Shown here: in pieces, positions 6,611 through 61,196 of the stretch
Position numbering within the stretch: position 1 is the first letter of the stretch
How the letters are laid out: every line of letters begins with the position of its first letter
Source: Alphaproteobacteria bacterium
GTDB lineage: Bacteria > Pseudomonadota > Alphaproteobacteria > Bin95
Length of the DNA stretch: 64,000 bases
Assembly (NCBI GenBank): GCA_965205265.1
Contig: CBDBGH010000003.1
Coordinates: forward strand, 1,664,001-1,728,000
Direction of reading: 5' to 3'
The notes under the pieces: model-generated
What the model was told of the DNA's origin: nothing
The model's database searches: none
The model's input: only the letters and a program-made list of their open reading frames with translations
Translations under genes and position numbers: made by a program

Positions 6611-6750
6611 TGATCGAAAGGGAGCGGATCGGAGACGCCGCGCGGTTTTCCCGCCCGCCGATTTCTGCGCTTTTGTGGGTAAATCGCTCGCTCCGGGCGG
6701 GCGAATCCGGTTAGGACCCGGCTGACCGACAGTCAGGGAGTCCGGGTTCG

Positions 6751-9700
6751 ATGCCTCATGCCGATTTCGTGCATCTCAGGGTGCATTCCGCCTACTCGCT
6801 GTCGGAAGGGGCGGTTCGGATCGAGGACCTGGTTTCGCTCTGCAAACGGTCCCGCATGCCGGCGGTTGCGGTCACGGACAGCGGCAATCTTTTCGGCGCG
6901 ATGGAATTCGCTGTCTATGCCTCGCAAGCCGGCGTCCAGCCTATCGTCGGCACGCTGCTTGCAGTCGGCGATACACCCCGTCGTCATACGCGGCACGACG
7001 ACGAGCCGGCGCCGATCCTGCTGCTGGCGCAGAACGAAACCGGTTACCGCAACCTGCTGGAGCTCGTCACTGCCTCCTTCCTGGAAACGCCCGGAACGGA
7101 AGCGCCGCATGTCGAGTGGAGCCGCCTCGAAGGCCGCACGGACGGCGTGATCGCGCTGAGCGGCGGGCCGCGCGGGCCCGTCGGCCGCGCGCTTGCGGAA
7201 GGCCGGACGGAGCTTGCGCGCCAGCTGCTGGAACGCCTGTCCGGGCTGTTTCCGGGGCGCCTCTATGTCGAGCTGATGCGCCATGGCGATGGCGGGCGCC
7301 CGGAGGAAGAAGAAGCGTCGATAGAGCTCGCCTATGCGCTGGACCTGCCGCTGGTCGCCACCAACGATGTGCATTTCGGCGCGGAGGACGACTACGAGGC
7401 GCACGATGCGCTGCTCTGCATCGCGTCTGCGCGCCGGGTCGAGGAGGAAGACCGGCCGCGCCTGACGCCGGACCATCGCTTCAAGACCGCCGAAGAGATG
7501 CGCGCGCTCTTCGCCGACCTGCCCGAAGCCGCCGACAACACGCTGGCCATAGCGCGGCGCTGCGCCTTCATGCCGACCGAGTCGGAGCCGATCCTGCCGG
7601 CCTTCGATCCCGGTGTGGACGAAGCGGAGGAGTTGCGCCGCCTGGCGCGCGAGGGCCTGGAGGGGCGGCTGGCCGAGCATGTCTTCCCGCAGGGCGCCGG
7701 CGAGGAAGACGCAAAGCCCTATCGCGAACGGCTCGAATACGAACTCGGTGTCATCGTCGACATGAAGTTTCCGGGCTATTTCCTGATCGTTTCCGAGTTC
7801 ATCCGCTGGGCGAAGAGTAAGGACATTCCGGTCGGACCGGGCCGCGGGTCCGGGGCGGGGTCGGTTGTCGCCTGGGCCCTGCAGATCACCGATCTGGACC
7901 CGCTGCGCTGGGGGCTCCTGTTCGAGCGCTTCCTCAATCCCGAACGCGTCTCGATGCCGGACTTCGATATCGACTTCTGCCAGGACCGGCGCGATGAGGT
8001 CATCGCCCATGTCCAGGACCGCTACGGCCACGACCGGGTGGCGCAGATCATCACCTTCGGCAAGCTGCAGGCGCGCGCCGCGCTCCGCGATGTCGGCCGC
8101 GTGCTCGGCATGCCGTTCGGGCAGGTGGACCGGATCAGCAAGCTGGTGCCGCACAACCCCGCGAACCCACCGAAGCTGGAAGACGCCGTCGCCAACGAGC
8201 CAGCCCTGCAGACCATGCGGGACGAGGACGAGACCGTCCGCCAGCTCATCCATCTGGCGCTCAAGCTCGAAGGGCTCTACCGGCACGCCTCGACCCATGC
8301 GGCGGGCGTGGTGATTGCGGACCGGCCGTTGCAGCATATCGCCCCGCTCTATCGGGACCGCGGCTCCTCCGACATTCCGGCGGTGCAATTCAGCATGAAA
8401 TGGGCGGAAGCGTCCGGCCTTGTCAAATTCGATTTCCTCGGCCTCAAGACGCTAACGGTTCTCGAAGATGCCCGCAAAATGTTGGCGGAAAAGGGCCTTG
8501 AAATCGACCTTCTGAAACTGCCGCTCGACGACAAAAAAACCTTTGAAATGCTCTCGAGAGGGGAGACTGTCGGCGTGTTCCAGATGGAAGGAGCGGGCAT
8601 GCGGGATACGCTGAAAAAACTGAAACCGACCCGGTTCGAGGACCTGATTGCCGTCGTTGCGCTTTACCGTCCCGGACCGATGGAGAATATCCCGACTTAC
8701 ATCAAGAGAAAGCATGGAAAGGAAGGCATAGACTACATGTATGAAACCCTCCAGCCGATATTGGAGGAAACATACGGCATTATAATTTACCAGGAACAGG
8801 TGATGCAAATTGCGCAGGTCCTGTCCGGTTACACGCTCGGAGGCGCGGATTTGCTGCGCCGCGCCATGGGCAAGAAAATCCAGTCGGAAATGGACGCCCA
8901 GAGAGAGACCTTCATCAATGGGGCGGTTTCGCGCGGCGTCGAGCCTAAATTGGCTGAAAAGATATTCAACCTGGTGGACAAGTTTGCAGGCTACGGCTTC
9001 AACAAATCCCATGCCGCCGCCTACGCGCTTATCGCCTACCAGACGGCCTGGCTCAAGGCCAACCATCCGGTCGAGTTCATGGCCGCGTCCATGACCCATG
9101 AGCTCGGCAATACGGACAAGCTCGCCCCCCTGCTTCGCGAGCTGGACAGGATGGACGTCGCGCTGCTGCCCCCGGACGTGCAGCATTCCGGCGCCCTCTT
9201 CCAGGTCGAGGCGGCGCCGGACGGCACGCCCGCCATCCGCTACGCCCTGGCCGCGGTCAAGTCCGTCGGCAGGGCCGCCATGGAGGCGGTGGAGAAGGAG
9301 CGCGGGTCCGGCGGCCCCTTCAAGAGCCCGTTCGACTTTGCCGGGCGGCTCGGCCCGAGAGCTTTGAACTCTCGGCTGCTGGAAAAGCTCGCGGAGGCCG
9401 GAGCCTTCGACTCGCTGGAGCCGGACCGGGCGCGCGTCTTCGCCGGCGCGGAAATGCTGATGCGCCACGCGGCCGTCGAGGAAGAGGAGCGGACGACCAA
9501 CCAGACCAACCTCTTCGGCGCCGTCGAGGATTTCGTGCCGGACCCGAAACTGCCCAACGCTCCGAATTGGGAGCCGATGGAGCGCCTCCAGCATGAATTC
9601 GACGCCACCGGCTTCTACCTGTCCGCCCATCCGCTGGACGAGTACGAACGCTATTTCCCGCGCCTGCGCGTCGAACCGATCCGGGCCCTGCCGGGCCTGG

Positions 9701-10197
9701 TGAAGCGGGGGCGCAATGCGGTCAACATCGCAGGCACCGTGCTCTCGAAGCAGGAACGCACCTCGAGGCGCGGCAACCGTTTCGCTTTCGTTGCCGTTTC
9801 CGACAGTTCCGGCCAGTCGGAGATCACCCTGTTCTCGGAAGTGCTGGCTACGGCAAGGACGCTGCTCGATACCGGGAAACCGCTGCTGTTCGCCTGCGAG
9901 GCCGCCATGGACGGCGAGGATGTCCGCCTCACCGCGAAAAGCGTCGAGCCGCTGGACGCGGCGGTCGGCAAGACCGGCAACGGCGTCAGCATCTTCATCG
10001 ACGACTACGAGGCCCTGCCCCGCATCCAGAGCGTGCTGCAACGGGAGCCGGCCGGCCGCGGCGAGGTCCGGATCCTGTTCGACATGGACAGGACGCATGA
10101 GGTCCAGATGTCGCTTGGCAGCCGCTTCACCGTCACGCCCGGCATGCTCTCCGAGTTGAAGGCGATGAAGAATATCGAGGAAATCCAGGAGATTTAG
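6751..10197 (+). CDS. dnaE: DNA polymerase III alpha subunit
   Basis: FVHLRVHSAYS PHP domain, GPGRGSGAGS, SMPDFDIDF, FAGYGFNKSHA, internal clamp-binding motif QTNLF. Confidence 0.98.
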   Translation: MPHADFVHLRVHSAYSLSEGAVRIEDLVSLCKRSRMPAVAVTDSGNLFGAMEFAVYASQAGVQPIVGTLLAVGDTPRRHTRHDDEPAPILLLAQNETGYRNLLELVTASFLETPGTEAPHVEWSRLEGRTDGVIALSGGPRGPVGRALAEGRTELARQLLERLSGLFPGRLYVELMRHGDGGRPEEEEASIELAYALDLPLVATNDVHFGAEDDYEAHDALLCIASARRVEEEDRPRLTPDHRFKTAEEMRALFADLPEAADNTLAIARRCAFMPTESEPILPAFDPGVDEAEELRRLAREGLEGRLAEHVFPQGAGEEDAKPYRERLEYELGVIVDMKFPGYFLIVSEFIRWAKSKDIPVGPGRGSGAGSVVAWALQITDLDPLRWGLLFERFLNPERVSMPDFDIDFCQDRRDEVIAHVQDRYGHDRVAQIITFGKLQARAALRDVGRVLGMPFGQVDRISKLVPHNPANPPKLEDAVANEPALQTMRDEDETVRQLIHLALKLEGLYRHASTHAAGVVIADRPLQHIAPLYRDRGSSDIPAVQFSMKWAEASGLVKFDFLGLKTLTVLEDARKMLAEKGLEIDLLKLPLDDKKTFEMLSRGETVGVFQMEGAGMRDTLKKLKPTRFEDLIAVVALYRPGPMENIPTYIKRKHGKEGIDYMYETLQPILEETYGIIIYQEQVMQIAQVLSGYTLGGADLLRRAMGKKIQSEMDAQRETFINGAVSRGVEPKLAEKIFNLVDKFAGYGFNKSHAAAYALIAYQTAWLKANHPVEFMAASMTHELGNTDKLAPLLRELDRMDVALLPPDVQHSGALFQVEAAPDGTPAIRYALAAVKSVGRAAMEAVEKERGSGGPFKSPFDFAGRLGPRALNSRLLEKLAEAGAFDSLEPDRARVFAGAEMLMRHAAVEEEERTTNQTNLFGAVEDFVPDPKLPNAPNWEPMERLQHEFDATGFYLSAHPLDEYERYFPRLRVEPIRALPGLVKRGRNAVNIAGTVLSKQERTSRRGNRFAFVAVSDSSGQSEITLFSEVLATARTLLDTGKPLLFACEAAMDGEDVRLTAKSVEPLDAAVGKTGNGVSIFIDDYEALPRIQSVLQREPAGRGEVRILFDMDRTHEVQMSLGSRFTVTPGMLSELKAMKNIEEIQEI

Positions 10198-60067: not shown

Positions 60068-60107
60068 CCGCTTGCCCCCGCCGGCCCGTTCGGGCGACAC
60101 TGGAGCC

Positions 60108-61196
60108 ATGAACGACGCTCCGGACTCCGGCGAACCCGGCGGCGGACCGGCGGTCCGCCCGGAATGGGAGGCCACGGCGCCGACCCGCCGGGAGACGGTG
60201 CCAGCGCTTGAGGAAATTCTGGGTAAAGAGTTCAAGGTGCTGGACCCCGGCCCCAAACACGGTCCCGGCCCCCACCCCAGCCCCGGCTTTGTGCGCGTCG
60301 TGGACTATATGGGGGGCGATGACGCCATCGTGCAGGCCGCGCGCGTCTCCTACGGCAAAGGAACCAAGCGCCGTTCGACCGACGCCGCGCTTATCCGCTA
60401 CCTGCTGCGCCACCGGCACACTACGCCCTTCGAGATGTGCGAGATCAAGCTGCACATCAAGCTGCCGATCTTCGTCGCCCGGCAATGGATCCGCCACCGC
60501 ACAGCAAATGTGAATGAATACTCAGCCAGATATTCGAAGATGGACCCGGAGTATTACATTCCGGAGCCCGAACGCCTGAAATCCGTGCTGGACGAGCAAA
60601 AGCGGAGCCGCCGTGAGCGAGAAGCTCAACTGGACCTGTTCGCGCCGCCGCGCCAACAGCCGGCCCTGTCGCTGACGGCCCAGTCAACTTCCAACAAGCA
60701 GGGCCGGGAAGGCCAGCTGACCGATGCCGAGGTCCACGATTCCCTTTCGCGGCTCAACTGGGTGTCCACCCGCGCCTACGGTGTTTACCGCAACTTGCTG
60801 AACGAAGACGAAGACGGCGCAAAGATACGGGAGGATCGGGCAGGCATCGCGCGCGAACTCGCCCGGTCCGTCCTGCCGGTCAACTATTACACCCAGTTCT
60901 ACTGGAAGTGCGACCTTCACAACCTGATGCATTTCCTTTCGCTCCGCGCCGACAGCCACGCGCAATATGAAATCCGCGCCTATGCCGACCTCATTCTCGA
61001 CGAGATCGTGAAGCGCTGGGTGCCGGTGACATACCAGGCCTTTCAGGACTATGTGCATCGTGCGGAGTTTCTTTCGGCCGGTGCTCTCGCAGTTGTGCGG
61101 CGCAAGTTGGCGGACGAACAGGTCACACAGGACAACAGCGGCCTCTCCCCGCGCGAGTGGGACGAACTGGAGGCCATTCTGAACAGGAAGCCGTAG
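60108..61196 (+). CDS. thyX: FAD-dependent thymidylate synthase with two insertions
   Basis: AARVSY, HTTPFE, ThyX motif [30 protein letters not shown]. Confidence 0.95.

Follow-up and report, generated by a model that had tools for sequence, protein, structure and literature searches.

For decades it has been debated whether DNA precursors are synthesized at the replication fork, both for the replitase and for the dNTP synthetase complex of phage T4. In the T4 system, the idea is that enzymes that produce dNTP precursors are physically coupled to the replication machinery, as a multi-enzyme complex of phage proteins. This idea of coupling is shared by the reading proposed here for a bacterial locus; to our knowledge, no clamp-binding peptide is known on the thymidylate synthase of the T4 complex. 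In eukaryotes, a two-hybrid interaction between SHMT1 and PCNA and a replitase proposal have been reported (PMC2688753). Nuclear de novo thymidylate synthesis follows the concept considered below, namely synthesis at the fork by way of the processivity clamp. The eukaryotic proteins are unrelated (ThyA-type TYMS, SHMT1 and PCNA), the contact is made by SHMT1 and not by the thymidylate synthase, and no homology is implied.

The beta sliding clamp of bacteria (DnaN) recognizes short peptides with the canonical motif Q-phi-x-[L/M]-[F/L], and the available sections of a clamp review name QLDLF as the strongest binder (PMC11139829). The key residues in these sections are L or M at position 4 and F or L at position 5. 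Position 3 varies greatly, with a slight preference for Asp, and the initial Gln is important without being essential; a single natural ligand is known to do without it, and its peptide binds poorly. The flanks are mostly acidic, and internal motifs are known in loops of folded proteins (PMC11139829). The ligands covered there (Pol III alpha, Pol II, Pol IV, Pol V, Hda and delta) are DNA-handling proteins; the word 'thymidylate' has 0 occurrences in the text of the review. A link between ThyX, or any thymidylate synthase, and the bacterial clamp was not found in the openly accessible articles searched, as judged from listed titles and the openings of abstracts. The one listed article on the replisome that mentions ThyX is a review of tuberculosis drug targets, and none of the articles on proteome-wide screens for clamp motifs has ThyX as its subject according to the titles. 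The statement in a first-pass annotation of this DNA that no such tether had been described for ThyX agrees with these searches.

A thymidylate synthase with an additional loop

The gene in question lies in a stretch of 64,000 nucleotides of alphaproteobacterial DNA, which is called the window in the following (Table 1). Its frame, 60072/60108..61196 (+), is open and offers an in-frame TTG at 60072 upstream of the ATG at 60108. The ATG is taken as the start because the N-termini of homologues match it (same first residues, MNDAP). The deduced protein (P0001) matches the Pfam family Thy1 (PF02511) with residues 63-307 over profile positions 1-191 of 191 (E 4.5e-55; 186.8 bits, cut-off 24.8). 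Its closest solved relative is the Thermus thermophilus enzyme 6j61 (E 2.8e-67), and the best Foldseek matches of an AF2 monomer model (mean pLDDT 69) are all ThyX (E 5e-18, TMt 0.63-0.66).

The ThyX signature has the general form RHR ... S.RY. Here it comprises R129, H130, R131, A133, N136, E137, S139, A140, R141 and Y142, which are invariant in 110 homologues, and in the alignment it pairs with the same stretch of the Thermotoga maritima and T. thermophilus enzymes. The full-length profile, the signature and the fold are thus common to this protein and to canonical ThyX (PF02511; 6j61; T. maritima 1o26), with core identities of 40% to 6j61 and 34-36% to T. maritima in the Foldseek alignments. 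The gene product is best explained as a working ThyX that belongs to a separate subfamily in the Alphaproteobacteria, and it is predicted to be an FAD-bound homotetramer that converts dUMP to dTMP.

What sets the protein apart from canonical ThyX is the addition of 32 residues, including a conserved x-x-D-L-F, between the YIP.PE.L segment and the QS..N.QGR loop. In the alignment with 6j61, query residue 156 pairs with chain residue 109 and query residue 191 with chain residue 110, leaving 157-190 unpaired. The spacer that separates the RY terminus of the signature from the QS..N.QGR loop measures 17 residues in most of 150 library representatives and 49 in this protein, which therefore carries 32 extra residues. 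The insertion is absent from all 21 distinct solved ThyX sequences that match the protein. Translation of 60579-60674 gives the residues quoted in the first-pass annotation, and positions 60627-60641 read CAACTGGACCTGTTC, that is QLDLF. The insertion of about 32 residues with its motif, as originally proposed, is confirmed by translation, alignment and spacer length alike. The accompanying statement that the flanking segments are nearly contiguous in ordinary alphaproteobacterial ThyX is borne out by 17 fetched loci that are cleanly free of the stretch.

Table 1. Coordinates of the thyX gene and of its features in the window.
Feature	Position	Strand	Remarks
thyX, flavin-dependent thymidylate synthase	60108..61196	+	362 aa plus stop; from ORF list and translation
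ThyX signature stretch	60492..60533	+	Residues 129-142; covers part of the AT-richer DNA
Predicted charged helix	60567..60620	+	Residues 154-171 (AF2 DSSP); pLDDT blocks 54-59; L157 and R169 at least 90% conserved
32-residue insertion	60579..60674	+	K158-L189; not in canonical ThyX; gap placement ambiguous by a few residues
QLDLF, candidate beta-clamp-binding motif	60627..60641	+	Q174-F178; L177 and F178 at least 90% conserved
Variable Pro/Ala/Gln-rich linker	60642..60674	+	Leads back to the QS..N.QGR substrate loop; pLDDT <50; lineage-variable

The layout read from the letters, a charged helix followed by the motif and a Pro-rich linker, agrees with the AF2 model, in which residues 154-171 are predicted to be helical and 172-205 to have no regular structure. 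The motif lies away from the core in this model, at a pLDDT below 50. Values below 50 extend over residues 172-200 but also over residues 135-152, which include part of the invariant signature, and the low score was accordingly downgraded as a proof of loop disorder. On its C-terminal side, the insertion directly precedes the loop with the invariant residues Q192, S193, Q198, G199 and R200. Among homologues it adds between about 22 and 55 residues, and the segments before and after the motif both vary in length.

The hand count of 29 G+C in 60 bases at 60481-60540 was exact; the lower value there is due to the overlap with the signature and its N, Y, K and I codons, and the AT-richer DNA was rejected as a sign of acquisition. 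A footprint of foreign or mobile DNA was likewise rejected, since the G+C content of the insertion (64/96; gene, 685/1089) resembles that of the window (43065/64000) and no second copy of its 96 bases occurs in the genome, where the longest other match is 20 bases.

The same enzyme has a second insertion at 60246-60281, where 12 Pro/Gly-rich residues (47-58) take the place of the His of a conserved LDHGF. Among 13 homologues inspected, it is present only in this protein and in a 92%-identical relative (P0002). It lies in GGCCCC-rich DNA and looks like a slippage-type expansion at the species level.

Conservation of the motif

Of 317 ThyX sequences collected, the 268 with both anchor patterns were kept and the other 49 dropped. 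A spacer of at least 35 residues occurs in 152 of the 268 and yields 125 distinct spacers, 118 of which contain x-x-x-[LM]-F or Q-x-x-[LMIV]-[FL]. In five of the seven others, the corresponding site reads DFF, DLL or DVF, and the remaining two (P0131 and P0224) are unrelated or garbled insertions. Among the 118 anchored distinct insertions, L is found at position 4 in 116, F at position 5 in 111 (L in 7), D at position 3 in 97, and E or G at position 6 in 53 and 37, respectively. Since close relatives are among the sequences counted, these numbers do not stand for independent events. Position 1 is more variable (M 43, Q 42, W 16, T 9). In the alignment of 110 homologues with 59-92% identity, A190 is the only residue between 153 and 191, besides the four marked as conserved in Table 1, that reaches 90%.

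A loose form of the motif is present in 13 of 13 representatives of separate lineages, and shuffled versions of each insertion match it in 1-10% of cases. Between these lineages, the identity amounts to 66% in the core and to 16% in the insertion outside the motif. Selective conservation of the motif among insertion-bearing homologues, the test that had been set beforehand, was found: outside the motif, the similarity between insertions has dropped nearly to the random level. In addition, QL[SDN]LF occurs only 4 times, ThyX included, in the 7.3 million residues of the six-frame ORFs of at least 100 aa of this genome. The reservation that a five-residue motif can arise by chance is disfavoured by both the cross-lineage conservation and the genome-wide rarity, and chance was rejected as an explanation. 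Because the motif is kept while the surrounding insertion is only 16% identical, x-x-D-L-F is, as judged from comparative sequence data, a selected short linear motif in a free-running, fast-evolving loop.

Distribution and ancestry of the loop

The insertion marks a distinct ThyX subfamily, which occurs in the genus of the window and in about eight further families of the class. It is missing from the majority of alphaproteobacterial ThyX, those of sister genera included. A ThyX match was obtained in 236 of 401 genomes sampled from the class, a tally that takes in one unpublished genome (G263). Leaving aside the genome of the window itself, the match was high-scoring and in one piece over residues 157-189 in 13 of 235 ThyX-matching genomes. 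For the remaining genomes shown, it is broken at 157|189, and its two parts lie directly next to each other on the DNA. Sixteen loci of the class were fetched, and the insertion was found in all 13 one-piece loci and in none of the 3 others. Among the best 150 representatives of 50%-identity clusters, only two (P0124 and P0232) have the insertion together with the motif.

Within the genus of the window, the match runs in one piece through the insertion in 15 of 16 other genomes, and one species (G013) is cleanly without it. In two sister genera of the same family, ThyX is free of the insertion in all eight genomes. In a tree calculated by a quick method from the core columns of 47 rows, with many forks open, the genus of the window joins ThyX of other families and not its sister genera. 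This tree needs two state changes, one between the insertion-bearing group and a 16-sequence insertion-less clade (support 83) and the other a loss in G013. Such a placement fits a distinct subfamily that may have spread partly by transfer.

The ThyX fold does not depend on the loop and, to judge from natural loop-less relatives, catalysis probably does not either. The loop-less ThyX of G013 (L017, G013:C1:990595-994119) provides a natural loop-deletion control; a protein of 316 aa (P0037) is likewise without the loop.

Likeness to clamp ligands

The first-pass annotation had recognized QL[S/D]LF as the consensus of DnaN-binding peptides, and rightly so with respect to the accessible review sections, in which the very peptide of this ThyX is the consensus sequence that binds best (PMC11139829). 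Residues 174-178 fit the Q-phi-x-[L/M]-[F/L] definition given there, and the motif resembles that of Pol III alpha in being internal, in a loop of a folded protein, with L and F conserved at positions 4 and 5. Measured against the ligands described in these sections, three features differ. The carrier is an enzyme of nucleotide biosynthesis and not a DNA-handling protein; across the subfamily, Gln-1 is not conserved whereas Asp-3 is; and the upstream flank is strongly basic (RSRRERE), whereas the flanks of known motifs are mostly acidic (PMC11139829).

In the same genome, DnaE contains QTNLFG (window 9502-9516), Hda starts with QFVLHL and DinB ends with PPELFAGAR. The two ThyX peptides of the genome, QLDLF and the QPDLF of a second copy, fit this apparent repertoire of clamp motifs. 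The DnaN protein (P0122) has the stretches TDGHRL and MPMR, both invariant in 29 relatives, which we take to be residues of the clamp pocket. A search for clamp motifs elsewhere in ThyX returned only 5 regex matches in the best 150 representatives of 50%-identity clusters, all of them in folded core segments and none terminal, and a general ThyX-clamp link through motifs outside the loop was rejected on these grounds.

The dnaE gene (Pol III alpha) is itself located in the window, at about 6715-10194 (+), with a DNA_pol3_alpha match of E 1.9e-99. It is about 50 kb away from thyX.

Possible docking on the sliding clamp

The favoured reading, given about an even chance, is that the loop peptide lets ThyX dock in the hydrophobic pocket of the clamp. 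The 32-residue loop, inserted just before the QS..N.QGR substrate loop, begins with a predicted charged helix and ends with a variable linker; between them lies a conserved [Q/M/W]-x-D-L-F-[E/G] peptide, the part that would dock in the pocket of DnaN. The loop is regarded as accessory because natural loop-less ThyX occur in the same genus. The ThyX tetramer with its four peptides could attach to DNA-loaded clamps in the wake of replication or repair forks. As the tetramer would offer four peptides and the clamp two pockets, avidity might allow weaker variants with M or W at position 1 to work. Docking could serve to supply dTMP locally, or to link the activity or stability of ThyX to DNA synthesis in progress. 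A simple benefit of local supply is not obvious, because dTMP presumably requires two kinase steps and diffuses fast. That ThyX of this subfamily is a true clamp client, carried as a tetramer by four QLDLF-type peptides on DNA-loaded clamps so that the synthase is placed or switched by replicating and repairing DNA, is judged to fall just short of an even chance. With DnaN as the putative partner, we infer that docking places or regulates dTMP synthesis where DNA is made.

The proposal was approached by co-folding the DnaN of the genome with ThyX residues 158-197. Three runs scored 0.35, 0.47 and 0.29, and the median of 0.35 falls in a weak band; the highest score among three controls, in which either the partner or the receptor was unrelated, was 0.00. 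The runs agree in at least 58% of contacts, with a partner pLDDT of at least 50. Of the solved complexes, 58 of 80 attain the mark applied, as do 2 of 110 mismatched pairs. Passes at or below 0.60 comprise only 7 of the 80 solved complexes and both passing mismatches, and so low a pass is more often false than true for a complex that was not already likely. Clamp-peptide complexes have already been solved, and memory of the model may contribute to the score. The co-fold with DnaN that had been suggested as a check gave weak support to the pair, in a band of mostly unreliable passes. The idea of a ThyX tethered to the clamp is upheld in part: the motif is selectively conserved and equals the best consensus, but a Gln in 42 of 118 and an Asp in 97 of 118 insertions are atypical and the co-fold score is low.

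The main alternative accepts x-x-D-L-F as functional and directs it elsewhere, either to another partner, such as an enzyme of the folate cycle or of nucleotide metabolism or a protease adaptor, or back onto the ThyX tetramer, where it could act as a lid or regulator of the neighbouring substrate loop; the likeness to the clamp consensus in this species would then be partly coincidental. This reading is a serious possibility, although distinctly below an even chance. It would account for a D-L-F-[E/G] profile that differs from the Q-centred ligands in the available review sections, for the basic upstream flanks that are atypical of clamp motifs there (PMC11139829), and for the modest co-fold score. 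The direct adjacency of the insertion to the invariant substrate-loop residues and the retention of L157 and R169 in the helix, which suggests contact with something, point in the same direction. A fixed intramolecular docking is hard to reconcile with the length variation on both sides of the motif, and the position of the motif off the core in the monomer model, where its pLDDT is below 50, also speaks against the alternative, as do the co-fold controls at 0.00. We know of no other bacterial hub that recognizes x-x-D-L-F.

A neutral, tolerated loop expansion in which QLDLF is a functionless chance match is very improbable: short motifs do arise by chance, the loop is dispensable in the same genus and position 1 drifts, but L and F are conserved like residues of the catalytic core inside a loop that has otherwise diverged between lineages, and the motif is far more frequent in these insertions than in composition-matched shuffles and very rare in the six-frame residues of the genome.

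Should docking on the clamp prove correct, ThyX would be, as far as the literature was searched, the first enzyme of nucleotide biosynthesis in the bacterial clamp interactome, which would be widened beyond DNA-handling proteins. The long-debated replitase coupling, by which dNTP synthesis is tied to the fork, would then have a bacterial version that is amenable to genetics. The question of precursor synthesis at the fork would become directly testable, with the loop-less ThyX of the same genus as the natural control, and it would be seen how a slow, essential enzyme such as ThyX might be coupled to replication. If the partner is not DnaN, the loop would still be a clean case of a short linear motif that is under strong selection in a metabolic enzyme of bacteria.

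Thymidylate metabolism and other clamp-like peptides in the genome

ThyA as a second route to dTMP was rejected, since the genome, with a completeness of 98.98%, yielded no match to PF00303. A second ThyX copy (L099, G000:C3:5267334-5268506, -) is 71% identical to the first (Pfam Thy1 E 6.8e-53), lies on the same 5.46-Mb contig and also has the loop, with QPDLFV. From its gene content, the genome appears to rely on ThyX as the sole type of thymidylate synthase found, present in two copies that both carry the loop.

Thymidylate kinase was considered as another carrier of a similar motif and rejected, as its frame is absent from the 53 motif-bearing frames of the genome and no such motif was seen in its ORF. 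The tmk gene (Pfam E 3.8e-44; L100, G000:C3:1447857-1451411; ORF 1456-2430, -) overlaps the start of the downstream ORF (446-1459, -) by four bases. From its sequence, we read this ORF as holB, encoding the clamp-loader subunit delta prime. The tmk-holB arrangement is of a known type and also links thymidylate metabolism with the clamp machinery.

Several other proteins of the genome contain clamp-like peptides. Two copies of an RPA-type plasmid replication initiator (PF10134, E 6.5e-57; G000:C2:8761-10083 and C2:37060-38382, L096) are encoded on a 43-kb contig. Near their N-terminus they have HQPDLFV, the same seven residues as the second ThyX copy, which may be a clamp-binding motif of the initiator. 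The large subunit of exonuclease VII (C3:997155-998957, L093) ends with KQGTLF, apparently a terminal motif, and a Fic-domain protein (C3:3884005-3885213, L092) ends with RQSSLFAANI. In a TrwC relaxase-helicase (C3:3423127-3426210, L091), RQADLFE is found between domains. About 35 near-identical AAA-type ORFs of 338-340 aa on C3 weakly match an Hda/DnaA-like profile. They probably encode the ATPase of a multi-copy insertion sequence, so that the genome would be rich in insertion sequences.
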